A DNA stretch of 64,000 nucleotides from an uncultured archaeon (GTDB taxonomy: Archaea > Thermoproteota > EX4484-205 > JAAOZP01), in NCBI GenBank assembly GCA_938045545.1, contig CALIBN010000010.1:32001-96000 (forward strand), given 5' to 3'. Shown piece by piece: positions 4,909 to 61,938 of this stretch. A model generated the notes under the pieces. The model did not search any database and was not told where the DNA came from. It saw nothing but the letters and a program-made list of their open reading frames with translations. The position numbers were made by a program, and so were the translations under genes. Position 1 is the stretch's first letter. Each line of letters opens with the position of its first letter.

Positions 4909-4910
4909 GC

Positions 4911-5096
4911 TTATCTCAGCCTCACCGCGTACCTTCCAGGAACCCTTGCCCCAATGAGTTTAGCTATTGAAGAAGCCTCAGGGTTGAAAACCAGGACTTC
5001 GCCGCTCCACTCCTGCGTGAACTCCTCACCGCCACAGTTTGGACACTTAGGCGAATCACTTATCATTTTACAGTTTAAACACGCTTTGAGGGGCAT
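4911..5096 (-). CDS. spt4: Transcription elongation factor Spt4 (RpoE2)
   Basis: KACLNC...CPNCG...WSG...PGRYAVR. Confidence 0.95.
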   Translation of the reverse strand: MPLKACLNCKMISDSPKCPNCGGEEFTQEWSGEVLVFNPEASSIAKLIGARVPGRYAVRLR

Positions 5097-20198: not shown

Positions 20199-20204
20199 TC
20201 CTCA

Positions 20205-20681
20205 TCACTTTTTCTCGCTTCCAGAGGACTTCAAAGCAGCCTTTGAAAAACCAACAGGCCCACCGGTCCTGCCGGTTGTCCTAGTCCTCTGACCCCTTAC
20301 CTTTAAGCCGAGCGAGTGTCTAACACCCTTCCAAGACTTAATCCTCATCATCCTCTCAATATCCATCTTCTGAGCCAATTCTAAGTCGGACGTTATCAGA
20401 TGCTTATCCTCACCAGTTATAGGATCCTTCCTCCTGTTAAGCATCCAAGCCGGGAGGTTTAGCGACTTAGGGTTGTTCAGGGTTGCCTCTATCCTTGAAA
20501 CCTCATCATCAGTCAAGTAGCCGAGACGAGTATCCATAGGTATGTTTAGCGCGATGCATACGGCTCTCGCCGTAGCCCAACCTAAGCCTTTCACCTGTGA
20601 AAGACCATCCAGTACTCTCCTCTTACCGTCGCAATCCACACCGGCGATCCTCACTATCTCCTTAAACTCCCTGTTGCTCAT
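20205..20681 (-). CDS. rps13: Ribosomal protein S13
   Basis: IVRIAGVD, GVRHSLGLKVRGQRTRTTGR. Confidence 0.97.
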   Translation of the reverse strand: MSNREFKEIVRIAGVDCDGKRRVLDGLSQVKGLGWATARAVCIALNIPMDTRLGYLTDDEVSRIEATLNNPKSLNLPAWMLNRRKDPITGEDKHLITSDLELAQKMDIERMMRIKSWKGVRHSLGLKVRGQRTRTTGRTGGPVGFSKAALKSSGSEKK

Positions 20682-20849
20682 AAAGGCTTAATGACGCTTA
20701 CCGGAGCCTGGTTATAAACATTATTTCTGGACAACATAGAAAAAGGAGGGTTAAACCCGGTAACGAGGGTTTCACTTTAGGGGGTTGGAACCAGTATTCC
20801 CTCAGTGATTAGCCGCGTGGAAACTGGTTGCTGAACAGCTTTACATACT

Positions 20850-21280
20850 TTATCCTTTAAAGGAGTGGCCTCCTATTCCTTCTCACCTTTACAAACTCTT
20901 TGCAGAATCTTTGTTTCTCTTTAGAGTCAAATCACACATTAAGTGCGCAGCGTGAACCACGTCAGCCCTCCTCACTATCTCGTTGAAGACTTGCTCTTCA
21001 GACATATCCTTAGGGTTAAAGACTAAGGTGAAAAACGTGCTACGCCTGGATTCAGCTCAAACTCGACATCTACCCAGTATTTTTTCCTTTATTCTTCTGG
21101 CCACTTCTTTTCCCCAGTACAATGGTAGGATGAAGCCACCATAGGGTCTTCCAAATACTTCTCCCACTTCCCGTTAACTAGGTCATTAAGTATTTCATCC
21201 CTTTCTTTATGCACCTTCTTCTAAATCCTATTCCTTTCCTCCTCGCTCTTCGCCTTCTTCAGCTTGGAGCAATATACACC
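20850..21280 (-). pseudogene. Decayed ORF fragments of unknown function
   Basis: Coding-like frames (SKLKKAKSEEERNRI*KKVHKERDEIL...; MSEEQVFNEIVRRADVV) broken by stops; boundaries approximate. Confidence 0.35.
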
Positions 21281-21438
21281 CAGATCTAAAACTGTCTCCA
21301 CGATATAGCGCGTGCCAGCAGTTCGTATATATCTGGGCCAAAAGGTCCTATTTCTGGAAATAGAACCTTTTTACAAGAATAAAAAAGGTTTATTACTCGG
21401 CTTTTCTTTTTCGGTAAAAGGAGAAGAGAAGAGAGAAA

Positions 21439-22013
21439 ATGGGCATAAAACTTGATAAAAAAATAATTATTATTGTGTTTAGGCTGCTGGTCTCTAGTTC
21501 AGTAATATCCTTCGTAATTACGAGTGTTTTGTGTTACTCGCTCTGGGGTTACTACTGGAGTAAACCTCCATATCATAACCTTGAATATGGAAATGTTTCA
21601 TCTTCAAGTTATTGGGCAGTGGAAGACGCTATCTCCGACTGGAATAATATACCGATAACGAACCATCCTTCCTTTTATCCTGTAATCTCTGGGCCCCCTC
21701 AACACGTTGAAATCCATGACACTTATAACTCCACTGCCTTATGGGATGGAAAATGTTGGCTATCTCAAACTTCGGAAATATAATTGAGCATGCAATAATC
21801 TACCTTAACACCTATTATGTCGATAGTTACTCTTACAATAAAAAGAAGTCTTTAGCCTGTCACGAGCTTGGCCATGTTCTTGGATTATACGACGTGGGGC
21901 CCTATAATCCAGTAATAATGAATGGATATACTTATTACAGATACGATGTTTACGGAATTTCCACTCCACAACAAGACGACATAAATGGAGTAGCAGCAAT
22001 CTATGGGGGATGA
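21439..22013 (+). pseudogene. Secreted matrixin/M10-like zinc metalloprotease split by a frameshift near 21770-21785
   Basis: N-terminal signal/TM, AISDWN, then in a second frame HELGHVLGLYD and Met-turn VIMNG, PQQDDINGV..IY. Confidence 0.75.
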
Positions 22014-22019
22014 AGGGGG

Positions 22020-22661
22020 ATGAAGAGGAATAGCTTGATAAAATTAAAGTCCGCATCTATTTTGATAGGAATTATCGTCGGATTGCTCAGCAGCCTGGTC
22101 ACAATCAACCATATCCTAAATCCACAGCATATGATGAATAATGCTGAAAACGATGAAACTGAAGATGCGGTTGAGGTAAGTTGGGTAATATATTTCAGCA
22201 ACTTAAGAGAGCTTGTAACAAACTCCGATGTAATAATTCTAGGAAAAGTCATCGATGCTAGAACGATTATTAGGACTATTTATGAACCATGGGGTACAAA
22301 GGATATAGGGACTGCATATAAATTTGAAGTCGAGCAAGTGATAAAAGGTGATCTTAGAGTCGGCGAGGTCATAGGATTCGCTCTGAGTGGAGGCATAATT
22401 AATGGGAAGCCGAGAATGGTCATAAGAGAGGATCCTTTGGCGAACGTTGGTGAACGGCTTATACTATTTCTAAAACGCACCGAAGGAGGCTTTGCGATTC
22501 AGGGTCCATGGGGAAGATTTATCGTAATTTCAAATAAAGTGTATTCGTTGGGCGCCATTTATCTGGCTTCGAAAAACTATTCATTGGACGTCAATGGAAC
22601 CAACCTAGAAGAATTCATAAAAGAAATACAGGTTATCATGACAACATTTTACATAGGCTAG
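22020..22661 (+). CDS. Membrane-anchored or secreted hypothetical protein
   Basis: 213 aa ORF, N-terminal TM, ELVTNSDVIILGKV motif; directly downstream of the protease. Confidence 0.7.
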   Translation: MKRNSLIKLKSASILIGIIVGLLSSLVTINHILNPQHMMNNAENDETEDAVEVSWVIYFSNLRELVTNSDVIILGKVIDARTIIRTIYEPWGTKDIGTAYKFEVEQVIKGDLRVGEVIGFALSGGIINGKPRMVIREDPLANVGERLILFLKRTEGGFAIQGPWGRFIVISNKVYSLGAIYLASKNYSLDVNGTNLEEFIKEIQVIMTTFYIG

Positions 22662-22736
22662 TAGCGCGCTAGCAGACTGAGCTCGTAAAAGGCTTCTATA
22701 ATAGTTTTTCTTCTTCCATGCTTGCCCCTTGGCCAG

Positions 22737-22789
22737 ATTCGGGCTTTTTGAGCCGCCAAGCGGGTATTCTACCAATGAACTACAGACCC
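22737..22789 (-). pseudogene. 5' half of tRNA-Ala(GGC) plus intron-like hairpin; 3' exon absent
   Basis: GGGTCTG TA GTTC ATTGGTA GAAT A CCCGC TT GGC G, then GCT-CAAAA-AGC; TTAAATAT box about 25-30 nt upstream. Confidence 0.65.
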
Positions 22790-22999
22790 TAGCGTTAACC
22801 TTTTTCCTAATGATATTTAAGCTTTCCCTATAATCTTAATAGATCTGAATACGAAATATGGTCTAATATCCAAGTTACCCATCATTATATTACTAACTCT
22901 ATTACAAATAGGGCTAGTTAAAAACCCAGCTGTTCCTGTTACATCTTGGAAAAATAGTCTTCCGAAGAATATCTGGGCTAGCGTACACTATAATATAAA

Positions 23000-23047
23000 A
23001 TATAAAATGAGAATTTGAGTGCGATATAAAATGAGAATTTGAGTGCG
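23000..23047 (+). repeat. Perfect 24-bp tandem duplication ATATAAAATGAGAATTTGAGTGCG
   Basis: Units 23000-23023 and 23024-23047, at the truncation point of the immunity-like remnant. Confidence 0.9.
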
Positions 23048-23202
23048 CGCTCCCACCAATACTTGTACTCCATCCACCCTCGGAGTATTCTATCCAGTAT
23101 CTCCTCTGAGGAGAGACGGGAATATTTTTGGAAGGAATCCATCTTCCTGAAGTATTCTATGGAATCTACGAATCGCTTCTTAAGCTCTGGGTTTATCATC
23201 AC
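23048..23202 (-). pseudogene. 5' remnant of immunity-like family gene (copy 1)
   Basis: MINPELKKRFVDSIEYFRKMDSF...SSEEILDRI matches copies at 24328 and 54164. Confidence 0.8.
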
Positions 23203-24111
23203 CGTTACTAATCATGAATTCAACTTTTAAGCATAACTTTTTTAATTTCATGTAAAAGCTTGGTTCCCCCCAATATGTTGTGCAGAAAAGATTGTGTGAA
23301 GCTGAGGTTTGGAATACGTGAGATTCAATATCCTCCTTTATCTGGTGCACGGGGATTAAACAAACAATGAAACTATGAAGAATGAAGATTAGAGGTGATT
23401 GGGAAGAAAAGACAGATAAAAGCAGAAAAGGGTCAGAAGAAATAAGGTCGTGCTATTCTCCAAGGTGAAGAGTCCGGAAATGGTATCGTGAAATCGGTTG
23501 ATCTCTTCTTCCGTTGATGGTATTTTTCTTCTAAGCATTTCCCCGATCTCGGCTAAGGAATAAATTTATTTGGTTCCATTTTCTCAAGAATGTTATGTTA
23601 TAGATTTATACCACGAAAGAGAACGTTTTTGAAACAAAGCTTATGATGCTTAAAGAAACAAACAACTCCTAATCTTTAAAAGATTTCAGTAAAATTATAG
23701 ATTGCCAGATGAACCGCTTAAACTATGGTGAAAACTCTCCCAAGGATGGATTCATACAAAAGGAATCGTGTAAAAAATTATTGAACATATCAAGGGAAAA
23801 ATCGGATTTACCTTCATAAGCATTCTATAAGTGACCCATAAAAGCCCAATCTGGTCACCGATGTCTCCGAAAGTCATTGAATTAAAAGCTGGGAGACTTA
23901 AAGGGGAGCCCTAACCCCAGGGCCTTAGTCGAGAAATGCCTAGCCTTATGAGACTCTATGGCCTACGAGGATGGACATCGCAATAGACTATGGTGGAAGA
24001 TCGAGAAGGATAAGGATTTAAGATGGTGTTGACAGAATAATGAAAATGTTGCCTACTGAGTGTCACCTCATGATCCCGAGATCCTTCATAACCTTAAGTT
24101 AGTTAAAGCAT

Positions 24112-24212
24112 CGCTGGGGACGGGATTCGAACCCGCACGGCCCAGAAGGGCCACAAGCTTGCTTGAAGAGCTTTTCTCCAGGCTTGCGCCTTGCCAGTTC
24201 GGCCACCCCAGC
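24112..24212 (-). tRNA. tRNA-Ser(GGA) with 16-nt intron at 37/38 (24160-24175)
   Basis: Acceptor GCTGGGG/CCCCAGC, anticodon stem CAAGC/GCTTG, long variable arm, TTCGAAT, discriminator G. Confidence 0.92.
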
Positions 24213-24327: not shown

Positions 24328-24590
24328 ATGGTGAACCTGGAGCTCAGGAAGCGCTTCGTCGATTCGATAGAGCACATTAGGAAGATGGATTTCTTCAAGG
24401 ACCACTCTAACTTGTCCTCCGTGAAGATCCTCGAAAAGATATTCGGGGGGAAATAGACTACGAGTATTGGTGGAAGGAAAAGAGTCCGCGTAAACGAAGG
24501 GAGCCAGATTTCTACAAATCCCTACGAGAAAATGATCTGTATGGACTCATCTTGAGAAAAAGAGTGTATATTCCGAAAGGGGTCTTTGCA
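24328..24590 (+). pseudogene. Immunity-like family gene (copy 2), frameshifted and truncated
   Basis: MVNLELRKRFVDSIEHIRKMDFFKDHSNLSS.KILEKIFG, frameshift in G-run near 24450, then IDYEYWW. Confidence 0.8.
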
Positions 24591-25950
24591 CGCGCGCTCC
24601 CCCCTCTTCGGGCCTGTAGAGAGACCTGTGGCAGTGCCCTATTACGCGGATCTCGCTCAGGTCCTTATTCTCTAAAAGTTTCTTCATCATCTCCTTGGGA
24701 TTCGCATCCATAGGAAGGCCGAGCTCATGGCCGTGGCTAAACCTTACTACCTTCCAATTCGCTAACTTGACCTTTATCCTTTTCTTCGAGAACCTCCGGA
24801 GCATCGTCAGAATCCTTATGGCTTCCACCAATATCGGATGCGGGCTATACAGTTGAGGTTCCCACGGTCCCCTCGCAAACGTAAACCTTCTCAGGGTCTT
24901 TAAAAACTCGGGAGCGTTTGAATCCGAGCATCCAGACACGTACCTCATGCGGGCGCCGAGGTCCTTCAGAAAGTCGAGGAAACTAATGATGTGCGATGCC
25001 TTTGGCTTCCCCTCCACGAAGTCGAATACGTCGCCCAAGAGGACCAGGTGGGTCGGGTGGATCTCCATGAGCCTCCTCAAGCACGGCAGCCAGAGTGATT
25101 GGGGGACACCTATGTGTAAATCCCCTACGACCGCTAAGCAATCATCCTTCTCCAATATCATGTCGTAAACAGGTATCTCATCCAGCTTTCCCTTCTCCGC
25201 ATACTCTTTGAGCATGACCCAATCGTGCCACGCTATGTCATCCGGGTTTTCAGCGATCTGGTTTGGGAACTTAGCTGAGCATGCCTTACAGTTACACTCA
25301 ATGAGGTCTCTTTCCAGGTCTATGATGCCCACGCCGGATGACGTGCCCGCATAAGCATGCCAATTCTTGGCCTCTATTAGCCAAGACATGCCCGCCAGGG
25401 AGATTTCAGGGTCTGATTTGTAGAGATCATGCAGGCCTTTGAGGCCTAAGGCCCCTATCATCAGGGGCTTCGCCCCGATTTCGTATATCTTCACCAGCCC
25501 CAGCGAGTAGAGGTCGTCGGCGATTTTAGCCATATCCTCATGGACCTCGGCGCCGCGGCTTCTAGCCAGAACGTACTCGGTGGCGTGAAGCCCAACCCTC
25601 CTGAAGCCCATTTTCTCCAGCCACTCCGCGTGGAGCGCCATCTCTGAAGGGTCTACTCCCTTCAGCAGCGTATCGTTGGTATCCCCTCCTCAACATACTT
25701 CATCGTTAGGAGCGTGGCCTCGATCAGATTGGATAAATTCAAAGCCTTGGAGTACTCGGCGTAAACGGGCATATCCCACCCAATCACCCCATTGAAGTCT
25801 CCTTTCTTTGTAAAAGCCCACGGTGAAGTTGAACGTCTCTTCGGTTAGGAGCCTATCCGGCATTATTGTTGAGAGCAGGATTTGACCATCGAATTCTAGG
25901 AAGTTGTGCACTCCTTCCTCTTTAACCCTTTTTATGTTCTCGCCGTCGCC
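24547..25950 (-). pseudogene. TGT/DUF4417-like barrel with CxCxxC...H site fused to a calcineurin-like metallophosphoesterase (copy A; frameshifts near 25815 and 25670)
   Basis: EGVHNFLEFDGQILL, GWDMP, EEGIPTI.LLKG, ECNCKAC...AWHD; GDLH, LLGDVFD, SHGH, IGHCH; homologous to 56480-56850. Confidence 0.72.
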
Positions 25951-39628: not shown

Positions 39629-40060
39629 TCACAGCTTGCGGAGGAGTATTCCATGGAATATGGTTCCCGATGCAGAAGGCATAGCCCCTCTTATTTTAGC
39701 GGCCTCCACCATTCTTCGCACCATTTTTTCAACCTCAACCGGGCCGTTACGCAAGAAAATGCGGCAGCCAGCCTCGCCAGCTAGGAAAACATCCGGATGC
39801 TTACGCACTATAGCCGGAATATTCGTGTAGAGGTCGATGATTATTCCTTGCGCCGCACGCGAAAGCATCTTCTCAAAAACATCACCTGACATGAAGATAA
39901 CAGTCTTGCAAGCGTACCTCAGGACCTCCAGAACTCTCTGTAGCGTGGAAACACGTGTCTCGCATCCAAGCCGTGGAGAGAATAGGCCCGCTGGAAGTAG
40001 CAATATCATTGTGGCAAACCACGAGGTTAATAGGCAGCCTTGCGAAAACACTGAAGACAT
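39629..40060 (-). pseudogene. C-terminal fragment of a uroporphyrinogen decarboxylase-like (MtaA/URO-D fold) protein
   Basis: VIFMSGD...FLAGEAGCRI..NGP..VE..VRR resembles URO-D family C-terminus; N-terminus missing. Confidence 0.45.
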
Positions 40061-40149
40061 GCTGTCGACCTCGGCGTGCTAGCGCGCCGTGGCTTTGAAA
40101 GCGAGCATTCCACCACAGTAGGTTTAAATCTTCCGACTATGTTTAAACA

Positions 40150-40950
40150 ATGAGGGAAATGAGGGGGAGGTTCACTATTTACGAGCAGCCTGAGCTTAGA
40201 GAGCCCCTGCTCATACTCGGGTTCAGAGGGTGGGCTGACGCTGGAAGAATATCAAGCGGATGCGTAGGCTACTTGGTGAGAAAACTGGGGGCAAGAAGGT
40301 TTGGCGAAATGGTTCCAGACGATTTCTACATTCTTCAAAACTCTCGGCCATTAGGATGGATTGAAGAGGGCATTATAAGAAGGATAGAGTGGCCCTCTAC
40401 AGAATTATTCTACTATAAGAATAGTCTTGGAGGAAATGATTTGATACTCCTGCTTGCCGACGAGCCTAATTTCAAGCCTAACGAATACGCTGAGGAAATT
40501 GTTAATTTAGCAATCTCTTACAAGGTGGGGAGAATATACGTGATTGGCGGAGTAATTGCTCCAGAGGCTTCGCCCACAGGGGAACAGCAGGTGGAAGCAG
40601 TTGTCGGAGATCCCGGGTTGAAAGCCGAGTTGAAAAAATACGGGATAGGATACGTGACATATGGGAGCAGTAGGCAGCTCGCGCCAGTAGGCATCCACTC
40701 GCTTCTCGTGCTCGCCTGCCAGAGAAAAGGTATTGACGTGGTAAGCCTATGGGGGCGTGCTCCACCCTTTGCCAACATATATCCTAAAAGCATTCACGCA
40801 GTCCTTGAGAAACTGGTTGAAATGTTGAAAATAGACCTTGACCTTGAGGATATTGAAAAGACCAGTAGAGACTACGAAAGGTTGATGGAGGAGGCAGCCA
40901 GACAACAGGAATCAAGCGAGAGTAGAAGGCAGCCAGAGTATTTCTATTGA
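40150..40950 (+). CDS. PAC2 family (proteasome assembly chaperone-like) protein
   Basis: GFRGWADAG, WPSTELF, DEPN, VGIHSLL, YPKS. Confidence 0.88.
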   Translation: MREMRGRFTIYEQPELREPLLILGFRGWADAGRISSGCVGYLVRKLGARRFGEMVPDDFYILQNSRPLGWIEEGIIRRIEWPSTELFYYKNSLGGNDLILLLADEPNFKPNEYAEEIVNLAISYKVGRIYVIGGVIAPEASPTGEQQVEAVVGDPGLKAELKKYGIGYVTYGSSRQLAPVGIHSLLVLACQRKGIDVVSLWGRAPPFANIYPKSIHAVLEKLVEMLKIDLDLEDIEKTSRDYERLMEEAARQQESSESRRQPEYFY

Positions 40951-41019
40951 GAAAACTTTTTCAGCAGCCTTCAACTGCCCAATAACCTTTTAACAATTAA
41001 ATTACAATTAAAAAGTAGC

Positions 41020-41460
41020 TTTCTTAACAGTAAGGAGAGCCTTAACATAAGACCAAACAGAAAAATGCCGCAAAGCTTCTTAGCAACCAGGTATTCAAGC
41101 CTACCTTTAACAACCTCGTGCTCCCCACCCCCCGACCAGTATTGGGTAGCTAATGAAAACCTCTGTGAAGCCGTTTAATGCACTACTTCAAAATAGTCCT
41201 CAACACTATTCCCTCGTGCGAGATAAGTAACAGTCGCGTCAAAAGGAATGGTTTACAGCCCATTCCCTTCAACAGGTCAAAAAAACCTCTCTACCTCCTC
41301 AGCCTTCAAATGGTTCTTGGGCCCACCCATGTGTAGCTTTATTGTATTTATTGTAACAACCTCGTTTTCGAAAGGCATTTCAATCCTTAAAGCCTCAAGG
41401 AAATATTTGTCCAAACCTTGGAAAAAAGGAAACCGGTCTGTATAGTGCTGCAAGACGTTT
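41020..41460 (-). pseudogene. Decayed DUF362-family Fe-S protein
   Basis: IKLHMGGPKNHL...KPFLFDATVTY...NSVEDY..NGF pieces spread over frames with stops. Confidence 0.5.
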
Positions 41461-41483
41461 CTCCAAGGTAGCGTTGCTAGCGC

Positions 41484-42281
41484 CTATCCTTCGATTTCTG
41501 TTGCGCTTGGTTCGTTCTCATAGGCTGTTTGCCACTGCACGTGACCCGTGTAGCTTATTGTAGTACTGCCTAAGTTCCCTATGACAAGCGTGTGGTAGTG
41601 GTACCGATTGTACGGCGGATACAGTGAAATGCTTGCATGGCCTCCGTATACTAGTGTGCCATGGGCGGTTCCAGGATCGACATTATAGTCAATTACACCA
41701 ATGAATAATGGTCCGTTAGAAGGCGACCAGTCTACTATTACGTTGACACGCACAAGGGTATAGCCACCATACTCGTCTCCATATCCCGGCGCCAAAGTGC
41801 CTCCTATATCGAATGTTATGATCGCATCTATACTTGCATCAGCTAACTCAAACACTTCCCATATGATGGGGCGTTTGTAGCCCCCCTCGTACTCCACGTA
41901 TCCACTGTATACTCCAAATTTTAAAGACGCTATGGGTTCTCCAGGCTTCAAAGAATCTATGTGAAACGAAAGTTTAACCGGTTTTGGAGGATTTAATGCT
42001 GACCGTTCCTTCAGCAGTTTTCTAACTTCATTCGGCATACCTCCAATTATTTTAAAGGTTATGAAATACTTGGATGATGGAGTACGGAGGATATTATTTC
42101 TGATAACCGTTGGGTTAATGGCACGCTTTTCGATAAGCAGTTCTCTCGCGTTGCCCGAGGACAGTTTTCCTCTGGATACTGGGAGTGTAATTATTTCAGG
42201 GGGGTTTGCATAGATAATTAAGATGCTAGATAACATTGTTAGAATTATTAATAGTTGCAATAACTTTAACTTCCCCACCAT
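41484..42281 (-). CDS. Secreted hypothetical protein
   Basis: N-terminal signal peptide, beta-rich C-terminus, AT-rich coding. Confidence 0.65.
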   Translation of the reverse strand: MVGKLKLLQLLIILTMLSSILIIYANPPEIITLPVSRGKLSSGNARELLIEKRAINPTVIRNNILRTPSSKYFITFKIIGGMPNEVRKLLKERSALNPPKPVKLSFHIDSLKPGEPIASLKFGVYSGYVEYEGGYKRPIIWEVFELADASIDAIITFDIGGTLAPGYGDEYGGYTLVRVNVIVDWSPSNGPLFIGVIDYNVDPGTAHGTLVYGGHASISLYPPYNRYHYHTLVIGNLGSTTISYTGHVQWQTAYENEPSATEIEG

Positions 42282-42806
42282 ACTCCCACCGTGCTATTAA
42301 TGAGTCAATATCACTTATAAATTTTTTTTAAAAGTTGTAAAAAATGCTGCTGATTTAAACATATGTTCAGAAAAAATACTCTATCAAAAGTAGACTTAAA
42401 TAGAGTGAGAATAAAAAAGCGAATACATTTATGCCGGGACTGAGAAAACAACCCCGATGTGGATCTAGCCGGAGAGTTCAGCAATATCCGCAATAAGTCA
42501 ACGAACTCGCTTCTCCCTGGCATTTAATGGTATCGCTCCCTTTCAACTTCTTTAAGCAATTTTTCTGCCTAGTTCCGCAATAACCACCTTTAGGTAGCTG
42601 AATTCCCCTAGTGCGCCAGTTCCACACCCATTTTTAATTTTGATCATTACCTTTTCCTCTGTAACTCCTCCCAAGTGATCAATCATCTTACAATTTACTT
42701 TTTGATTCTAATTCTATAATCTTTTTTCTATCAATAGCTTCTAAGCACATTTTATCAATAATATGTCACGTGCTCAAATCCAAGCACTCCCACCTTTTTT
42801 ATGCTT

Positions 42807-43856
42807 TTATTGGCTTATTACCCACGTGTTCCCCATGCTATCGGCAGGCAAATATTTTTTCTGTCTAGGTTTAAAGGCTAGTAAAGCAATTCCTGCGATT
42901 GTCATGATGAGGCCTATGCTTGCCATGACGCTGCCAATTATCTTCCCCCCGAAGATTGTTGAGACAGTTGTTTTCTCCTGCCATTCTAGTGCCGCATGGA
43001 TAATTATTTTTTCATCTACATCTTTTAAAGGGTTTTCAACGACGAAGCATACGCTGAACGCTGAGCCCACCTGGTCTTCTGTTAGCGAGATGTTGAAGCT
43101 TGAAGAGTTGACGTTCTCCTGCTCAAGTATGACAGTGTAGTTTTTGCCAGCAAGCCAATTCCAATAGTTAGGATACGTCATAACGTAGAAGTTGAACCTG
43201 TTTCCATTCATCTCCGTAGCGTTGCCCCTGAGCCTGAAATCCTTGGCCTCTTCGATTAAAACCTGAGGGGGTGAAGCCACGTAGTCGGTGCAATCTGTTC
43301 TCGAAGATCTCTCAATCCAGCTGATCGTTGAGTCAACGAAGACCGTTGGCTCTACTCCCGGCTCATGTTCCTCAACGACAAAATAGATCGCGTCGGGCAG
43401 GTTTTCCTTCAAGGCTATTGAGAAGTTGATGCTAACTGAGGTTTTACCCTTCTCCTCGAAGTAAGCCTTGTAGGATAAGCCTGCTTTCCATAGGTCGAAG
43501 TTAACACGGTCGAAAACGTAGAAGTTGAAAGGCTTCTGGGGGGATGATTGTTCAACTGCATTCACTGTTATCACGAAGCCCCTTTCCTCCCCGGAGAAAG
43601 GAGGCGTGGCCCCCCAGCATGCCTCGTACTTCAAGGGGGTTTCCACTCTGAGAACCTTTTCGACAAGTTTCTCGCTGACAGTTTTCCATCCGGCTGAAAC
43701 ACTTAGGGTTTCCCCTTCAACCAGTGTTCGGCTTCTAGGCTCCCAACCGACATCTGCCGGAACAATTATCGCGGTGAAGACCCCAACTGCGAACAGTATT
43801 AAACCCGCTATAAACGCTATTTTTTGAATAGGATTAGTCAAATTCCACTCGATCAT
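42807..43856 (-). CDS. Membrane protein with two repeated beta-sandwich (GOLD/emp24-like) domains between TMs
   Basis: Internal repeat FNFYVFDRVNFDLWKAG / FNFYVMTYPNYWNWLAG; N- and C-terminal TMs. Confidence 0.7.
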   Translation of the reverse strand: MIEWNLTNPIQKIAFIAGLILFAVGVFTAIIVPADVGWEPRSRTLVEGETLSVSAGWKTVSEKLVEKVLRVETPLKYEACWGATPPFSGEERGFVITVNAVEQSSPQKPFNFYVFDRVNFDLWKAGLSYKAYFEEKGKTSVSINFSIALKENLPDAIYFVVEEHEPGVEPTVFVDSTISWIERSSRTDCTDYVASPPQVLIEEAKDFRLRGNATEMNGNRFNFYVMTYPNYWNWLAGKNYTVILEQENVNSSSFNISLTEDQVGSAFSVCFVVENPLKDVDEKIIIHAALEWQEKTTVSTIFGGKIIGSVMASIGLIMTIAGIALLAFKPRQKKYLPADSMGNTWVISQ

Positions 43857-43983
43857 GTTTAAAGTCTCGATATAAATTTTTCTCGGCCGCATTAAAGTAT
43901 TCAACGCTTTCGAAGAACACATTGCGTAATAAAGGTGAACAACTGGAAGAAGATCCCCAGCGAGGAAACTTTGGTACACTTGT

Positions 43984-44730
43984 TTATGCCTCTAGTTCCC
44001 CGATCTTCCCGAGGAAGACCAAGTCTAAGCTATATGCTTCAGCCTCCTGAAGATTTACCGAGCCTGTTTTCAAGAAGCCCCTCAGCTCCTCGGATATTCT
44101 CTCAGGATTGTTAACTATGAGTTTCCCAATGTTCTCGTTGAAAGCCGGCATTAAAAGTATTTCAACAGCGTTTTTTAGCAAGGCCTTAACCCAGACAGGT
44201 ATCACATACCTGTAGCCGAGATCATCGAGAAGCTCTACAGCCGGGTGGAAATGCCCGACTACGACTCTCCTAACATTGTCCCAACCTTTCTTTTCGAGAA
44301 TAGTGTCAACTCTCTTATGACCATGCGTGAAGAGAACACCATTAGCCAATAATCCGTCAGGATCCATTAGCTCAACCCCCTCCGGCAGGACAGCATAAAG
44401 ATCCCCGTCGTGGTTCCCGGGAACAATCCCAACCCATTCAAACCTGCTAACTATTATTCGCATGAACTCTGGGATCTCCATCCACTCAAGCCCTCGAGGG
44501 CCGTATACAGTGTGCTTCAAGTCTCCAAGGATTAAGAGCCGACTAGCAGACGTTTTCTCAGCAAGGCTTAAGATGCGCGTAAGGATCCTCTTGGTTAGGC
44601 TCGGAAGCTTGATTCCCTTAAGCCTTATCTCACCCTCATAACCTATATGCGTATCTGCAATAACTAGTGTTTCTCCGGCAAGTAGAGCCGGCTCGCCTTT
44701 AATAAGCTTAAATCCTCTTCCCGCGTTCAA
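43984..44730 (-). CDS. Metallophosphoesterase (calcineurin-like)
   Basis: ADTHIG, LGDLKH, PGNHD, THGH, GHFHP, MPAF. Confidence 0.9.
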   Translation of the reverse strand: MNAGRGFKLIKGEPALLAGETLVIADTHIGYEGEIRLKGIKLPSLTKRILTRILSLAEKTSASRLLILGDLKHTVYGPRGLEWMEIPEFMRIIVSRFEWVGIVPGNHDGDLYAVLPEGVELMDPDGLLANGVLFTHGHKRVDTILEKKGWDNVRRVVVGHFHPAVELLDDLGYRYVIPVWVKALLKNAVEILLMPAFNENIGKLIVNNPERISEELRGFLKTGSVNLQEAEAYSLDLVFLGKIGELEA

Positions 44731-44749
44731 GACCAAGGTAATAAGCGGG

Positions 44750-45160
44750 ATGATTGAAGATAAGGATAGCGTTGACAAGATGCCTGAGGAGATAGCTAGG
44801 CTTCTTAAGACTCAGGGTATGACACGTGAGTGCGAGGAGAAGATCATAAGTGCTTTCGGTGAAAGAGGCAGAAGAGCCTTGAAGACAGTTGTTTCAAAAA
44901 GGGTGAAGAAGTACGTTCTTCAGCCTTCGAACAGGATTAGGTGGATTATCGTTGGCAGGGAGGAGGAGTACCTCGTTATCCCGCTGGTGAAGTATTGTTC
45001 TTGCCGCGATTTCTTCTATTACATAATGAACGGAGAAGCATACGCCTGCTATCACCTTCTGGCGCAAATAATTGCTGAGTTCTCGGGATTATATGACGAA
45101 GTAAGAGAATTAGACGAGGTCTATGATAGGGTTATTGCTTCAAGGCTCTTCATATACTAG
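44750..45160 (+). CDS. SWIM zinc-finger protein
   Basis: YCSCRDF...CYHLLA motif. Confidence 0.85.
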   Translation: MIEDKDSVDKMPEEIARLLKTQGMTRECEEKIISAFGERGRRALKTVVSKRVKKYVLQPSNRIRWIIVGREEEYLVIPLVKYCSCRDFFYYIMNGEAYACYHLLAQIIAEFSGLYDEVRELDEVYDRVIASRLFIY

Positions 45161-45315
45161 AGCCTACAGCTTGAAGAGACTCTCGTGGCTCAGATTAATA
45201 ACTAACCTAGCACTTTTCAACAACTATTGAAAAAACTGTTACTATTGCGAGGCGAGTGAAGGATCAATGGGCTGGAGAAGAAGACCCCATGAATGGTTTC
45301 AAGAGTATTCATATA

Positions 45316-45996
45316 CTAGCACGGATGTAGACGGAATATCTCGTAAGTCAGCCAGGCCGCCACCGTCCAGGCTGCTAAAACACCGTCGTAGACTGAAACC
45401 TTCTCCCCCGTCACGCTCCATATTTCATCAGAGGGTCTTCCCCTAGGGTAGGCTCCGATTAGGAAGCATGTTGGAACACCGTCTTCTGAAACACTCTTAA
45501 CGTAGTCTCGGATTTCAACCATCCTGCCAACATGTGTGAAGAGTATTCTACGAGGGTACTCGTCTAAAACCCTTAAAGCATCCTTTTTAGACACTGTTTC
45601 CATAAGGATTCTTCCACCCGGGCTCAGGATTCTGCCTTTGGAGAGAAGCTTCTCCATCAGCCCTATGAAGTTCCAGTAGGTCGCTGGAAACCTTATTCTC
45701 TCCCTCGGGACAATCCATTTTCCGGCTACAGTGTGCACCACCACCCCTAGTTTCCCAGCCCTGTAGACCGGGGAGTCTGAAACTATTTTAAGACAGGTGT
45801 GTAAAATATCCGGCCGGCCTCTTTTCCAACTGTTTTCAAGCCTAAGAATAGCCTTATGGTGGATGCTTCTCTCAAGCATTGTTTCCAAGGGATTTTTACC
45901 CTTTTTAACAGCGTTTTTAACAACCTGCGGGTGGGCGGCAATCTCCCTGGGAACAAGCTCGAGACTCGAGTCGAAAAAGCATATGAGACTCTTCAT
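45316..45996 (-). CDS. nep1: 16S rRNA pseudouridine methyltransferase Nep1/EMG1
   Basis: LELVP, KRGRPDILH, DSP, RFP..Y.NF.GLME.L, IGAYPRG. Confidence 0.92.
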   Translation of the reverse strand: MKSLICFFDSSLELVPREIAAHPQVVKNAVKKGKNPLETMLERSIHHKAILRLENSWKRGRPDILHTCLKIVSDSPVYRAGKLGVVVHTVAGKWIVPRERIRFPATYWNFIGLMEKLLSKGRILSPGGRILMETVSKKDALRVLDEYPRRILFTHVGRMVEIRDYVKSVSEDGVPTCFLIGAYPRGRPSDEIWSVTGEKVSVYDGVLAAWTVAAWLTYEIFRLHPC

Positions 45997-46058
45997 CCCT
46001 AGTCCTCCCCCTGCTAAACCTTATAAAACCTTTGCTTCCAGAGGGAGACTGAAGACTG

Positions 46059-53938: not shown

Positions 53939-54029
53939 GGGCCGATCGTCTAAATGGTTAGGACACCTGCCTGACATGCAAAATGCACAGCAGGCGCAGG
54001 AAATTGCGGTTCGAGTCCGCGTCGGCCCA
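53939..54029 (+). tRNA. tRNA-Val(GAC) with 18-nt anticodon-loop intron (about 53977-53994)
   Basis: Acceptor GGGCCGA/TCGGCCC, anticodon stem CCTGC/GCAGG, TTCGAGT; intron contains TGCA-AAA-TGCA hairpin. Confidence 0.9.
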
Positions 54030-54124
54030 CTTATCCTCATTGCACGCTTTAGTATTAAGAATGGATCTCCATTTCTAAGCACGCGATTTGAAATTGGGGA
54101 AACCTTTTTCCAAGGGCGCTTACA

Positions 54125-54163: not shown

Positions 54164-54902
54164 ATGAACAATCCCGAGCTAGGGAAGCGTTTCATCGATT
54201 CAATAGAGTATCTTAGAAGGATGGATTTCTTTAGGGATTATTCCAATTTAGCATCAGAGGAGATCCTCGATAAGGATCTTCAACGGCGAGATAACATACG
54301 AAGCCCAGTGGTTCGTTGAGAAATGGCCTGGGGGGGAGCGGAGGAAGGAGAAAGAAAAGGGAGAGACATACGGACAACTTTTGAAGAAGTCATTAGAGGA
54401 GCGCGAGGAATACTGGATGAAGGTAAGCGATTCCAGGGTAGATTTGAGGATGACCCACTTCGACGTCAAGAGAGTTTTTGCTGAGGATGCCGAGACGATT
54501 GTGATGGAGGGCATGGGGATAAAGTTAATGGAAAAGCTCGCCAGGATATCTAGAGGTTTATTTAACCCGATCGACATTAGAGAAAAATGGAGAGAGTGGA
54601 AGGGCAGGCTCCCTCCTGAGACCACTCCGCAAGTGAAGGAATATTTTGATCGCGACCACGGACTTTGGAGCAAGCGCAGCGTATCCTTTAAGTTTAAAAA
54701 TGAAGAGCATGCCGTGGATTTCTACTGTGAAGGCGATTATCTATTGATTGATCTCGCAGTTAAGAAAATAAATGAGCTCATCAAGGATACGGGGTATCAG
54801 TATTACTGGCTTCATGACACTGGCTACATCGCCTACATTGTCCTCTCGGAAGATGAGGCCGAGAAGCTAAGGGAAAGATGTTGGAAGCTCTCCTCGCTTT
54901 GA
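54164..54902 (+). pseudogene. Immunity-like family gene (copy 3, near full length; one +1 frameshift near 54275)
   Basis: MNNPELGKRFIDSIEYLRRMDFF...EEILDK / IFNGEI...INELIKDTGYQYY...EAEKLRER; convergent with the nuclease. Confidence 0.75.
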
Positions 54903-56480
54903 GACCTGGGTTTTTCGTACCCGACTATATCCCCTAGAGTATACTCGATTCCGTTCTCACAACCCGTCTTAATCATCTCATCCATGTCCTTAAGGTATAT
55001 CGCTATCGGGATTCCGTACTTAGCCTTACTGAAGTCATAGCCCTTCCATTTGTCCTCCGTGAAGTAACCTCTCAGCTGCCTTGTGCCTTCTTTTATACGC
55101 TCATCCGGATAATCATCAGATATCATCGTTGTTTTGGTCTCGAATATCACCACAACCTCATCCCCGCAATACACAGGGAAATCCGGCCCTATTTTGTGCG
55201 GTCCTGAAACCTTAAGCTTATCCTCTGGGATTCCTGTGATTTCAGACGCCTCCTTCGTAAGAACCTTTTCCTTTAAATAGGAGTACAACGTATTCCTCAC
55301 CGATGTCTCCCTCGAGTTTTTAGTTTTATCTTCAAGTCCTTTGCTGAGAGCATCCTTCAACTTCTCAACTCTCCTCGTTAAAACACGCTTAGGATTCTCC
55401 AAGTATATCAGACGATCGGATACTTGCTTGCCTTTCAAGTATTCCATTCGGATCGTAGCTCATATCCAAAATTTGTCTAAAAGTCTCAATCATTATCTTG
55501 GACAAATATCGCCCCTCCCAATTGTAAACTAGTTTGAGCTCATGCTCCTTTGCCTGCCAGACTTTTATCGTGAAGATTACCGCAGGTCCCTTGTTCCATC
55601 TGTCGTAGTGCATATCTTTCTTTAGAGAGATTTCTATCCTTCCATATTTCACGACAAGCCAGTATTTTCCGTGCGAGAATTCTATGTTGAATGGCATTCT
55701 TCCTTCCTTGATCGCCATCCTGATAAACTCGTACGTGGTGATTCTAGTTATTACTACTTTAGCCACTTCACCATCTTCACAGATATTCCCGGGAAGGTCA
55801 GAATCGAACTTCGGTCCATATTCTTTGAAGAACGTTCTCCCCTTTACCTCAATCTATATCTAGCAGGTTCTTTTCCCAGATACAGTTTAATCTGCTCACT
55901 ATGTATACGGATCCTTAGATTCTCCTTATGTTTTTTCAAGATGCATTCCACCCTTAAGCCTTCGAGTTGCTCCTCTCTTTAAATTTCCTCAGCGATTTCT
56001 TCACTAACCTCTTCGACTGACTCCTCAGTTCTCTCTTCAACTTCCTTCTCAAATAACTCTTCAACCTCCTCAACTACTTCTTCAATCTCCTTCTCAACAA
56101 GCCCCTCTTCGACGAGCTCCTCGACTTCTTTAACCTCTTCTTCCTCCTCAATTTCTTCACCCTCTTCTTTAACTCCTCAACTTCTTCCTACTCTAACGCC
56201 CTTTCCTCTTCAACCTCCTCGGTAACCTCTTCATCAACTTCCTCAACAAACTCTTCCTCTTTTCCCTCAACCTCCTCAACGATTTCCTCAACAGCCTCTC
56301 CTTCCTCTAACATCCTTTCCTCCTTAGCTTCCTCAACAAGTTCTTCAACCTCCTCAACTTTCTCTTCAACCTCTTCGAAGCTCTCAAGGATCTCTTCAAG
56401 GGATTCCTCCTCTCCCATTAACTCCTCAAATTTCTCCTCCAGAATATCGGATTCCTCTATAGGTTCTTCGTATTCCTCGG
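54833..56480 (-). pseudogene. Large Glu-rich protein ending in a PD-(D/E)xK nuclease domain (putative polymorphic toxin), multiple lesions
   Basis: E-rich region about 55960-56480, middle domain about 55400-55950, C-terminal GPDFPV...VIFETK...EGTRQLRGYF; premature stops at 56188 and 55980 plus frameshifts. Confidence 0.65.
55960..56480 (-). repeat. Low-complexity GAR/GTT-rich region encoding EEVEE-type repeats
   Basis: Repeated CTTCCTCAAC/CTCTTCAAC on the plus strand. Confidence 0.85.
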
Positions 56481-57234
56481 GCTCTCCTGAAGGCCATTTT
56501 CTCCAGCCACTCTGCATGGAGCGCCATCTCCGAAGGGTCTCCTCCCTTCAGCAACGGTATCGTCGGTATCCCCTCCTCCACATACCTTATCGTCAGGAGT
56601 GTGGCCTTGATCAAGTTGGATAGGTTCAAGGCCTTGGGGTAATCGACGTAAATGGGCATGTCCCACCCGATCACCCCGTCGAAGCCTCCTTTCTTCGCGA
56701 AGCCCACAGTGAAGTCGAACGTCTCCTCCGTCAGGAGCTTATCCGGCATTATGGTTGAAAGCAGAATTTGACCGTCGAATTCGAGGAAACTATGTATGCC
56801 TTCCTCCTCAACCTTTTTCACGTTCTCGCTGTCGAGCTTGGAGATCGACACTATGACCCATCCATCCCTAGGTCCCTCCTCGGCTTCACAGGGTCCTCAA
56901 GCGGCATCTCGGGGATTAAACGGGGAAGCGCAATATCAGGTGGGCTTCGTCTCAAAGACTCCAGCATCAGGCTCAGCTTATAGTATACATCTGCCTCGGG
57001 AGGAGTGAACCTGCCGGACTTTACGCAGGCCGGGGCGAGCGGGCAAGTGCTACATTTAAGAGTTATCCCCATGATCCTCATCTTTCCAGCAATGCATTGG
57101 TAGACCAAGCACATTTTCCTCTTGGAAAGATGACACCCGGCACATAACCCGAGTTTAAGGTAATCGCATTTGCGGCATGACTTTCCACACCTAGGGGGGC
57201 CATACGCGATATACATTCTCAGTAAACTCGTCAT
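56481..57234 (-). pseudogene. Cys-rich Zn-finger (DUF3795-like) plus N-terminal part of the TGT/DUF4417-like barrel (copy B), truncated by deletion
   Basis: CGKSCRKC...CAGC...C...C...CSTC....C; frame change at about 56851; EGIHSFLEFDGQILLSTIMPD...GWDMPIY.DYP...GIPTIPLLKG; similarity to copy A stops at MAFRR. Confidence 0.7.
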
Positions 57235-57779
57235 CTTTTCTTTAAAAGTTTTTAAAAAAAGCGCGAGAACGCGCGATTAAAACAATGACCCTTCAGGATA
57301 GTTTCTACATTTATTTTCCTTAATATTTTCAGTGCAAATTAATGTCTTATTCTTCTCTCCAGTCTTCTCATTAGTATGGAAATTTTGGAAACAAAGGCAT
57401 CAAGGCCTTTTAATCGCCTTGAGCCTTTTAACGCGCACGCCACCTATGATGCTTAGCGTAACACGTTACCGTTCCCCCCAGTGCCGGAGGAGGCTTGATG
57501 AAAATCCTATGGGTGTCGAACATGCTACTTCTAGGTCCACTTTAGAGACGCTGGTCTTCATCCGGTACTCCTTGCGCTGCTAGCGTACGCTAAGAGATAT
57601 GATTTTGCAGGAGCAGAAGGCGATTCTATGAAAAAACCCTTTCACCTCCCTTGCCCCTTCCTGTAAGTGCTTGTCAGACTGGTTTACTGCTACAATAATA
57701 GGCTTAGAAGGAAAGGAGAACATTGAGCTTAATCTGCCCAATATTGCTAGCTTTATATAAGATTACTATGGGTGCCATA

Positions 57780-60460: not shown

Positions 60461-60562
60461 GCGGAGGTCGCCAAAGCCAAGCAGCGGCAAAGCCTGGTCA
60501 AAGGCGCGAGGCTTAGGACCTCGTCCCGTAGGGGTTCGTGGGTTCAAATCCCACCCTCCGCA
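60461..60562 (+). tRNA. tRNA-Leu(TAG) with a 16-17 nt insertion/intron in the D-loop (about 60475-60491)
   Basis: Acceptor GCGGAGG/CCTCCGC, anticodon stem CGAGG/CCTCG, long variable arm, TTCAAAT, discriminator A. Confidence 0.9.
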
Positions 60563-60993
60563 CTTCTCAAATAAGCCATACCACGATTTCGTCGTCCCAA
60601 AGATCAATATCACCTACCTTTAACTCGTCGACGCTCCTCCCCAGCTCATAGCCCAAGATGTGTTTGGCCAAACCCTTATCGATCAACTCCTCGCTAAGGT
60701 TGTTCAGCAAGTTCATAAGCCTTCGTGAACGAGTACCACCATTATTTTGATGGCGCATTCTGACCCTGTTTCGCATATTAAGTCTGTCTGAGGAATGAAC
60801 GCATATCTAGGCCTACGCCCAACCTTCACCCTGCCTGAAAGCATGTGAGCGCGCACATTCCACCTCTTAGCCGGAGGTTGCGCACGTATGTTTGAGAGAA
60901 AAACCTGGCCGACTATGATCTTGGTTTCAAGCACAATTCTTTTAGCCAATGAATTAAAAAAACTTTTTAAACGAGGATTAAAACAGAGTATCG

Positions 60994-61938
60994 TTGTCGT
61001 CAAGATATGAAGTCAGATTAATACCTGTCGAAGAAAAAGAAAGATTAATGGATAAATATGGTGAGCGCCTTCTCTACGAGGAGAGAGCAGACATATACGG
61101 GTGTTGCGTCAAACTGCTAACCGATGTAAAGTACGTGAAGGAGCGTTGGGAGGAAAGCTTCTATCCAATGTCGGCACATGTTCGCTCCCATGGAAGATTG
61201 ATTGTGACAAACGAGACGGATGAGGAGCAAAGCGTGTTCTATGACCCGCTTTCGAAAACAGCCTTCCTAATCAACGTAGATTATTATGGCTGGGTGAAAT
61301 CCATTGCCTTGAGTGTTGCAAGCGATATTCTTGAAGATAGTCATAGAATAAATTCGGTCCACGGCGCGTGCGTGGACGTAGATGGTAAAGGTGCTTGTCT
61401 AATCGCTCCCTCTGGAACAGGAAAAACCACTCATACGTATGGTCTTCTTAGGCTTAAAGGAATACGTGTCGTATCAGATGACTGGTTTTTCGTCCGCTTA
61501 ATGGGAGAGCAAGCCATCGCGTTTGCTTCGGAGAAAAATTTCTACATACAGGCAGATATCGCAGATAACTGGGGCGAGTATCAAAAACTTGTCGAGAAAG
61601 CTGAATTCGATTCGAAAGGCAGAGCCGTAGTAAACGTAAGATGGGTTGTTGGCAAGGGCAAAATTTTGCAGATGACTACGTTGAAAAAGGCTATACTACT
61701 TAAGCGCGATCCGGGGGACAAGACGGTTTTCGACAGGCTCTCCCCAGAAGAAGCATCCAGCTACATAGAGTCTGTCGACTTCTGTAATCCGCATATGCTT
61801 GTAAAGGACGGAAGAAAGATAGATTTAAGAAGGAGATTCTTTAAAGAATTGTTTAACCACCTAGAGGCCTATATCGTAAATACTGCTGCACCAATTCTCC
61901 AAAGCCATAATGCTGTTAAAGAAATTTTAGGGTTATAG
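60994..61938 (+). CDS. HPr kinase/PEPCK-like P-loop protein
   Basis: SVHGACVD, APSGTGKTT, SDDW motifs. Confidence 0.8.
   Translation: MSSRYEVRLIPVEEKERLMDKYGERLLYEERADIYGCCVKLLTDVKYVKERWEESFYPMSAHVRSHGRLIVTNETDEEQSVFYDPLSKTAFLINVDYYGWVKSIALSVASDILEDSHRINSVHGACVDVDGKGACLIAPSGTGKTTHTYGLLRLKGIRVVSDDWFFVRLMGEQAIAFASEKNFYIQADIADNWGEYQKLVEKAEFDSKGRAVVNVRWVVGKGKILQMTTLKKAILLKRDPGDKTVFDRLSPEEASSYIESVDFCNPHMLVKDGRKIDLRRRFFKELFNHLEAYIVNTAAPILQSHNAVKEILGL

Follow-up and report, generated by a model that had tools for sequence, protein, structure and literature searches.

In polymorphic toxin-immunity systems such as contact-dependent inhibition (CDI) and Rhs, a variable C-terminal nuclease domain is carried on a constant N-terminal part, and a small adjacent gene co-varies with this tip; the archaeal systems of this kind were reportedly surveyed by Makarova et al. 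in 2019. The CinA/CinB pair of Wolbachia likewise joins a nuclease to a binding antidote. DpdA of the Dpd 7-deazaguanine DNA modification-restriction system is a homolog of tRNA-guanine transglycosylase (TGT). Homing-endonuclease cassettes of the fungal mitochondrial atp6 gene are said, in the work of Paquin et al. from 1994, to insert at the 3' end of the gene and to bring a replacement 3' end with them. Here we describe a three-gene cassette with likenesses to each of these, met in a 64,000-nt stretch of DNA (the whole stretch is hereafter the window; contig CALIBN010000010.1, positions 32,001 to 96,000) from an uncultured archaeon. Gene A joins a Cys-rich domain, a TGT-like barrel and a putative metallophosphoesterase domain, gene B ends in a predicted PD-(D/E)xK nuclease, and gene C is a convergent, immunity-like partner; we call this arrangement the type-2 cassette, and its sister, made of a TGT-like gene, a LAGLIDADG gene and a third gene, the type-1 cassette. 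The window contains a decayed, lineage-specific copy of the three-gene cassette (copy B), inserted beside the tRNA-Val gene; the cassette was met solely in one group of hot-spring archaea. Comparison with intact relatives indicates that the conserved pair is the gene B tip with gene C, which we consider, with somewhat better than even confidence, best read as a polymorphic-toxin-like predicted nuclease and its cognate immunity-like partner.

The features of copy B and of related remnants are given in Table 1 (coordinates without a contig are window positions; G000 is the source genome and C-numbers are contigs). An earlier note on this DNA had reported a gene beginning MNNPEL directly after tRNA-Val. 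Such a gene is present and convergent with the nuclease gene, but its 51-amino-acid (aa) open reading frame (ORF; 54164-54319, +) is only the first piece of gene C: it contains the first ~37 codons of a ~230-aa gene whose remainder runs to 54902 in another frame, as a 173-aa ORF (54381-54902, +). The break is one extra base near 54273 (tblastn, residues 1-37, then 37-232); a frameshift at the G7 run near 54330 was ruled out by tblastn and translation. The acidic stalk, the middle domain and the C-terminal PD-x(n)-ExK motif described in that note were all recovered, at or near where it had placed them, as were the Cys-rich domain and the TGT-like barrel upstream, which are split by a frameshift near 56857. 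The stalk motif EPEEYEEPIEE.DILEEKFEELMG is that of intact gene B, and the Cys pattern of the Cys-rich domain is that of the intact copies; the conserved gene B N-terminus is absent, the middle domain is frameshifted relative to both neighbouring parts, and the barrel fragment lies in the stretch 56426-56851 (-). The overlap of the 3' ends of the nuclease ORF and gene C, which had also been noticed, amounts to 70 nt and arises because the nuclease ORF has lost its stop codon, being 24 codons longer than its intact homologs. Similarly, the jump from the barrel into the Glu-rich region is real: at 56483 gene A homology ends at residue ~245 of 618 and gene B stalk homology begins at residue ~205, the remaining barrel, the phosphoesterase and the gene B N-terminus having gone in a deletion of ~1.75 kb. 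Together with the one near 56857, copy B has five frameshifts, the others lying near 56190, 55870, 55450 and 54273.

Table 1. Positions of cassette features in the window and of two type-1 cassettes elsewhere in the source genome
Feature	Position	Strand	Evidence or remark
tRNA-Val (GAC)	53939..54030	+	ARAGORN; Rfam RF00005, 51.6 bits; insertion starts right after its 3' end
Copy B, gene C, immunity-like partner	54164..54902	+	Full length apart from the frame break; tblastn, translation, family motifs present
Copy B, gene B C-terminal PD-(D/E)xK domain, predicted nuclease	54833..55447	-	ORF; motif; fold of intact homolog
Copy B, gene B beta-rich middle domain	55389..55877	-	tblastn to intact gene B residues 389-520; ORF
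Copy B, gene B poly-Glu stalk remnant	~55868..56517	-	Two frames, shift near 56190; translations
Copy B, gene A TGT-like barrel, N-terminal half	56483..56863	-	tblastn, 82-83% identity to intact gene A residues 119-245
Copy B, gene A Cys-rich N-terminal domain	56851..57234	-	ORF; tblastn; Cys columns
Copy B, non-coding right arm of insertion	57235..57730	.	Alignment with empty sites of G012 and G016
Copy A, gene C 5' fragment (residues 1-42)	24328..24453	+	tblastn
Copy A, gene A residues 129-579 (barrel C-terminus and phosphoesterase)	24595..25947	-	tblastn; two internal frameshifts
Further gene C 5' fragment	22978..23202	-	74-aa ORF; tblastn match at 23053-23202
Type-1 cassette	G000:C11:30898-33773 (L010:2899-5774)		tRNA 3'-end direct repeats, 52 nt, 98% identity
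Type-1 cassette	G000:C40:9567-12518 (L012)		tRNA 3'-end direct repeats, 27 nt, 100% identity

The insertion extends from 54031 to ~57730 (3.7 kb) and adjoins tRNA-Val. At the orthologous site of genomes G012 and G016 the cassette is absent and ~117 nt separate tRNA-Val from a kinase gene, similarity to these empty sites starting again at ~57744, at the kinase promoter. In the closest relative, G006 (95-98% identity in the flanks), tRNA-Val is followed by only the first ~270 nt of gene C. No direct repeats of the tRNA-Val 3' end were found around copy B, either with exact seeds or in a fuzzy search allowing up to 4 errors. The GC content falls to 0.435-0.44 at 52-56 kb of the window, compared with ~0.50 around it, and the flanking core genes read without interruption, as ORFs of 282, 100, 546 and 344 aa. 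The suspicion that the lesions are real decay was thus borne out, since the 1.75-kb deletion cannot be a sequencing error and since G006 retains just a gene C stub at that site.

We next turned to intact relatives. Searching the genus with the phosphoesterase ORF of the second window copy (copy A) returned matches in 10 of 17 genomes (source included), and 5 of these had open frames of 603-661 aa. Complete modules of ~5 kb, in which genes A and B run towards gene C, were found at 5 loci in 3 same-genus genomes, and the ancestral unit that had been proposed (a partner gene facing an acidic-stalk nuclease gene that follows a zinc-finger (ZnF)-TGT-like-phosphoesterase gene) therefore exists intact. 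In these modules gene A encodes 584-654 aa, gene B (722-850 aa) begins 4-180 nt downstream of it, and gene C is convergent, its 3' end abutting that of gene B. Intact gene B starts with MGQFSAELNYERRLERY and continues with ~200 Glu-rich aa, the middle domain and the nuclease. An intact pair of tip and gene C also lies just outside the window (G000 C10:100069-102465).

The tip carries a PD-(D/E)xK motif on a restriction-endonuclease-like fold, as judged from a structure model, and is a predicted nuclease. All 7 aligned tips keep the D and the E of the motif PD-x13-E-x-K as well as two Thr that follow, and 6 of them have the K. The C-terminal 333 aa of one intact gene B were modelled with AlphaFold2 at a predicted local distance difference test score (pLDDT) of 90.9. 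The fold, which the earlier note had set as a test, was recovered when this model was aligned with VIA-align against 48,161 chains: 13 reached Z≥5 and none Z≥8, most of them PD-(D/E)xK enzymes. Over tip residues ~170-331 these matches included 3syy (alkaline exonuclease, 7.3), 3k93 (phage exonuclease, 6.5), HsdR (6.4), MspI (6.1), EcoRV (5.5), Hjc (5.5) and BpuSI (5.5), while the top match was a pheromone-precursor domain (2qx2, Z 7.5). Foldseek gave weak matches only, among them CinB (7esz, E = 6.6e-3). A profile search of the Protein Data Bank (PDB) with the tip returned no credible match, and all its matches in Pfam and NCBIfam fell below the cut-offs. The middle domain of the model is beta-rich and gave only weak similarity (2qmi, Z 5.3).

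Intact gene C homologs are 225-260 aa long and yield a predicted model with a pLDDT of 92.2. Against PDB structures the best Foldseek match was E = 1e-2 and the best VIA-align Z was 3.0, with none at Z≥5; a profile search of the PDB gave nothing below E = 0.3, and the protein atlas returned unnamed clusters together with a weak lead to DUF6630 at a score of 0.79. Neither gene B nor gene C matched a model in Pfam or PADLOC, and the tip and its partner match no toxin or immunity family of Pfam. A search of the genus found gene C in 14 of 16 genomes, whereas 24 searched genomes from outside it had none; there are up to 21 matches per genome, many of them broken. In the databases it forms 59 clusters, all named hypothetical, one of which is in a record named Infirmifilum uzonense (42% identity).

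To relate gene C to its neighbours, we collected 44 loci with gene C relatives (records titled Candidatus Brockarchaeota, Thermoproteota and similar metagenome-assembled genomes) and examined the 34 near-full matches. Gene C was intact at 30 of these; a convergent ORF of 282-2379 aa abuts it at 22, and the other 8 lack a gene B, orphan gene C copies and stubs being common. Homology to the middle or nuclease domain was detected by BLAST in 20 of the 22 abutting ORFs, so the convergent gene is indeed linked to nuclease tips. The acidic-stalk N-terminus occurs in 5 of the 22 only, and gene A lies upstream in all five, which are the five complete modules. The remaining scaffolds are unrelated to the acidic-stalk form, and the tip with gene C terminates proteins of up to 2379 aa. 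Homology from scaffold to scaffold begins at a common junction, NYP(D/E)GL..KC, and a strongly hydrophobic N-terminal segment is found in 6 of 21 scaffolds.

We further compared identities among the 21 modules with a gene B of at least 500 aa (210 pairs; tip, last 330 aa; N-terminus, first 200 aa). Gene C identity followed that of the tip (Spearman 0.61; reached in 0 of 2000 Mantel permutations) and not that of the gene B N-terminus (Spearman 0.05). In 15 pairs the tips are ≥45% identical and the N-termini <25%, and in 12 pairs the N-termini are ≥50% identical and the tips <35%. Gene A shows 70-79% identity in all comparisons among the five stalk modules, and two of their gene B proteins are 89% identical in the N-terminus but 28% identical in the tip. 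These comparisons point to the tip and gene C as the conserved pair and to the acidic stalk with gene A as one of several N-terminal contexts. The earlier note had proposed to test for a conserved stalk and middle domain with a varying tip and partner; gene C does follow the tip, but the middle domain goes with the tip and not with the stalk.

Some scaffolds stand apart. Five giant ORFs of 1611-2379 aa (at L102, L103, L093, L114 and L118) have hydrophobic N-termini and a C-terminal middle domain, and behind each lies a convergent gene C; BLAST detects the nuclease domain in L102 and L103 only. A Pfam search of five giant gene B proteins (1358-2339 aa), those of L102, L093 and L114 among them, gave no family at E≤0.01. 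At G000:C1:3292-5823 (-) there is an intact 843-aa acidic-stalk gene B with an N-terminus 67% identical to the stalk type and a tip ~31% identical, and tblastn found no gene A or gene C near it; it may represent a third tip type.

The earlier note had offered two functional alternatives, a polymorphic-toxin-like element or a modification/restriction element. We put the former first because gene C co-varies with the tip and scaffolds are swapped, as in that pattern; the latter was weakened by the TGT-like domain, as described below. Under the polymorphic-toxin reading, the C-terminal ~330 aa of gene B (middle domain plus PD-(D/E)xK nuclease) would be the effector tip, and gene C, made from its own promoter beside a tRNA gene, would be the cognate partner, most likely an inhibitor (immunity protein). 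Tip and gene C would move as one unit onto different N-terminal scaffolds; in the version seen in the window, the scaffold is a conserved helical N-terminus followed by a poly-Glu stalk of ~200 aa, and gene B would be co-transcribed behind gene A. It is from sequence that we infer a toxic tip, its neutralisation by gene C, the delivery or target of the stalk form and the role of gene A. Further likenesses to polymorphic toxins are the orphan partner genes and stubs, the conserved junction motif before the tip and the signal-like N-termini of some proteins.

Several points weigh against this reading. Immunity genes are usually co-directional with their toxins, whereas gene C is convergent. In the acidic-stalk gene B the N-terminus is not hydrophobic (maximum KD15 -1.0 to -0.45) and Pfam shows no known trafficking domain, so export of this version is unsupported; in lacking an export signal and standing behind a TGT-like/phosphoesterase gene it differs from polymorphic toxins, as the cassette does in having a tip and partner outside the Pfam toxin and immunity families and a partner fold without a PDB match. 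Gene C has ~20 invariant residues across 26 sequences, many of them charged, and is better conserved than the tip (44-64% vs 23-56% identity); to judge from these alignments, its conservation and charged residues could equally suit an enzyme or a DNA-binding factor. The Z-scores of the tip fold are moderate, 7.5 at most. In addition, the genomes are close kin and the pairs not independent, and some N-termini among the 21 modules, for example those of L100, L104 and L090, may be spurious owing to short contigs or internal starts.

The association with tRNA genes, which had been suspected from two copies in the window, was examined across gene C loci. Of 10 gene C copies in the source genome, 6 have their start at a distance of 68-258 nt from a tRNA gene, whichever way the two are oriented, against a chance expectation of ~1.3% (42 tRNA matches x ~600 nt in 2.03 Mb). 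In other genomes at least 17 of 44 gene C loci have a tRNA-like match ≤420 nt upstream in a crude BLAST and ARAGORN screen, and Rfam, run on 9 remaining loci, revealed one more RNA gene directly upstream, that of the signal recognition particle (SRP) RNA. These counts make the tRNA link strong but not universal. Contigs C11, C42, C18 and C30 of the source genome end inside or beside cassettes or tRNA genes, and cassette copy numbers are lower bounds because the repeats probably fragment the assembly. In G000:C16:32637-38027 and at L045 (G007:C48), the genes for tRNA-Ala and tRNA-Thr enclose a segment with a type-2 module and tRNA-His that points one way in the first genome and the other way in the second. 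An inversion between these two enclosing tRNA genes, whose 3' parts have a 21-nt stretch in common, is suggested.

In the source genome the sister type-1 cassettes are 2.8-kb operons encoding a ZnF-TGT-like protein (338-361 aa), a LAGLIDADG protein (LAGLIDADG_3, E = 3.4e-14) and a 220-aa protein, which is not detectably related to gene C (hhalign probability 0.2%). Two of them lie between direct repeats of a tRNA 3' end (Table 1), and at the locus orthologous to the C11 element six relatives lack the cassette, the flank running on to the tRNA across a gap of 68-275 nt. In other genomes 8 of 20 type-1 loci have flanking repeats, 48-135 nt long and mostly tRNA 3' parts, two being the 3' end of the LAGLIDADG gene itself. 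At L068 (G021:C49), in another genus, the cassette is flanked by a 135-nt, 100% identical repeat (2024-2158 and 4827-4961) that is the last 135 nt of a protein gene (190-aa ORF, putatively ITPase-like by eye). Between the repeats of the C11 unit, Pfam searches of the three ORFs found no integrase, transposase or recombinase; one ORF gave a weak TGT match, one matched LAGLIDADG_3 and one had no match. No excision or circle joint for this element was present in the Logan contigs, which break at the repeats, and in one sequencing run its depth was 24.8 compared with 34-41 in the flanks. Homing of type-1 cassettes with immunity by target disruption was rejected, the repeats being 98-100% identical and the tRNA of an empty site matching that of the occupied site at 98.7% identity. 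Of 301 Thermoproteota genomes searched, 24 contain the TGT-like family, which is concentrated in the host order (12 of 16, 5 of 6 and 2 of 2 in its families).

Clear flanking repeats were found at 1 of the 15 type-2 loci examined, L041 (G007:C19), where 86-nt copies of an RNA 3' end lie at 3373-3458 and 9157-9242. A tRNA end was considered as its source and rejected, as the sequence comes from the SRP RNA gene, at its 3' end; the displaced copy lies 5.7 kb from that gene, beyond an intact type-2 module. L041 is not a clean attachment-site pair, because ~230 nt resembling its SRP-downstream gene lies inside the repeats. In a 17-locus repeat screen L007, a type-1 variant, was the sole case, with 49-nt repeats.

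Intact gene A begins with a domain in which 10 Cys are invariant, followed by a TGT-like barrel with its CxCxxC..H site retained (in copy B that part is deleted) and a putative metallophosphoesterase domain. The latter scores 26.8 bits with PF12850, against a Pfam cut-off of 27, and keeps the motifs DxH, GD, GH and GHxH, with GNHD reading GCSD. Gene A matches the PADLOC TGT model (E = 7.7e-10), beyond which no PADLOC model matched the cassette genes, and a profile search with gene A gave only de novo TIM barrels at E≥0.003. The profile of the related 361-aa family matches the archaeosine TGT (ArcTGT) of P. horikoshii (1iq8, E = 4e-7, residues 58-317), with an invariant zinc site (C318, C320, C323 and H349). 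In the profile alignment ArcTGT Asp124, Asp130 and Asp136 fall on invariant Asp of the TGT-like family, whereas Asp95 aligns with the invariant Ser142 and Asp249 with Leu292, the posterior support at the second site being moderate; gene A itself reads GMSWL.EA at the second site. We take Asp95 and Asp249 to be the catalytic pair of this ArcTGT. By this alignment the barrel probably serves nucleic acid or base binding rather than exchange.

Three other explanations were weighed. In one, which we regard as unlikely, the cassette is the machinery of an integrase-free mobile element: the TGT-like protein would read tRNA-like or gene-end targets, a break made by the nuclease would drive recombination-based insertion, and gene C would regulate the nuclease. 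The proximity of gene C to tRNA genes fits this, as do the sister cassettes, clean insertions between target 3'-end repeats that hold no integrase or transposase and have cassette-free counterparts in six relatives, and gene A has a link to homing-type nucleases, since it also neighbours a helix-turn-helix (HTH)-LAGLIDADG gene (a weak match, 21.6 bits vs a cut-off of 22.5). However, of the type-2 loci L041 alone has clear repeats and is not clean, copy B has none detected, tip and gene C also occur on giant proteins without gene A, and no circle or excision joint over the type-1 element was found in the contigs. A broader version, in which the TGT-like/nuclease cassettes constitute a new class of mobile element that lacks an integrase and inserts where genes for tRNA, SRP RNA or proteins have their 3' ends, a catalytically dead TGT-like barrel reading the target and the tip and gene C serving as an addiction or competition module, seems to us doubtful though conceivable; recombination with an element-borne copy of the target end would then account for the repeats of 27-135 nt. 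A parallel is provided by the atp6 elements, with which the sister cassettes share a LAGLIDADG gene, a target left whole and a displaced 3'-end copy downstream. They differ in that their repeats are 98-100% identical, so that insertion destroys no cleavage site lying within them, that two further genes travel with the nuclease, and that the targets are tRNA genes and a protein gene, with a pair of SRP-RNA 3'-end repeats flanking one type-2 module.

A Dpd-like modification-restriction defence, in which a TGT-like enzyme swaps a DNA base and the nuclease cuts unmodified DNA, would explain the PADLOC and 1iq8 matches, the retained CxCxxC..H zinc site, the constant adjacency of the nuclease gene and the position of cassettes in low-GC islands, and Dpd too places a TGT-family protein beside nuclease genes in a genomic island. 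This alternative is weakened because the TGT-like domain aligns without the ArcTGT Asp95 and Asp249. Moreover, the intact modules consist of genes A, B and C only, with no ParB-like (DpdB-like) partner or 7-deazaguanine genes, no further PADLOC model matched, the phosphoesterase has GCSD for GNHD, unlike in Dpd the TGT-like domain shares its protein with a Cys-rich domain and a phosphoesterase, and a defence system would not usually leave so many decayed copies in each genome; we hold it to be rather improbable. That the locus is a housekeeping one for tRNA processing or modification, its tRNA neighbourhood being incidental, appears hardly credible. A TGT-like fold is present, the splicing-endonuclease fold is among the weak structural matches of the tip (Z 4.1-5.0) and the cassette adjoins tRNA genes, but presence varies among close relatives, copies are many and often broken, and gene C is restricted to the genus among the genomes searched.

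With regard to the polymorphic-toxin reading, the Wolbachia CinA/CinB pair resembles the cassette in having a PD-(D/E)xK effector beside a cognate partner, and CinB is one of the weak Foldseek matches of the tip; there is no sequence relationship, host, operon order and biology differ, and the match reflects the shared fold only. In full-text searches of the literature (main texts) we found no description of this combination, in agreement with the earlier note, which had not recognised it as a described system. If the pair works as we infer, archaeal conflict systems gain a family of nuclease effectors and partners that has yet to be characterised, in a host lineage for which nearly all data are metagenomic (record titles Candidatus Brockarchaeota or Thermoproteota). 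Gene C, confidently modelled and without a match in the PDB, would have a new fold, and the TGT-like protein encoded ahead of the poly-Glu stalk version aligns without the catalytic aspartates, which suggests that a tRNA-modification fold has been put to use for binding. Insertion at gene 3' ends without a known recombinase may be what the sister cassettes exemplify, and such a route bears on the reasons for the hot-spot status and the frequent fragmentation of archaeal tRNA genes. All cassette families are rare, with 46 tip representatives among 1.84 billion proteins and 26 database clusters of gene A, named hypothetical or metallophosphoesterase.

Other remnants occur in the window. Copy A keeps the barrel C-terminus and the phosphoesterase and lacks the nuclease gene by tblastn, just as had been described; its phosphoesterase gives a Metallophos_2 match of E = 2.5e-5 (24.8 bits vs a cut-off of 27). 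No gene B is present in this copy, and two gene C stubs are left beside a tRNA gene, the copy A fragment lying 116 nt from that tRNA (24112-24212, -; Rfam tRNA, 47.6 bits). At 60713-61003 (-), 150 nt past tRNA-Leu (60481-60563), a decayed fragment of a type-1 third gene is a further cassette remnant at a tRNA gene. The low-GC stretches 20000-24000 and 40000-46000 (0.39-0.47) contain ORFs with signal-like N-termini and no obvious core function. Finally, 66 nt at 22754-22819, beside a gene C stub, are 94% identical to part of the tRNA locus G000:C12:77468, matching the upstream flank and the 5' half of that tRNA, which hints at recombination between tRNA loci.

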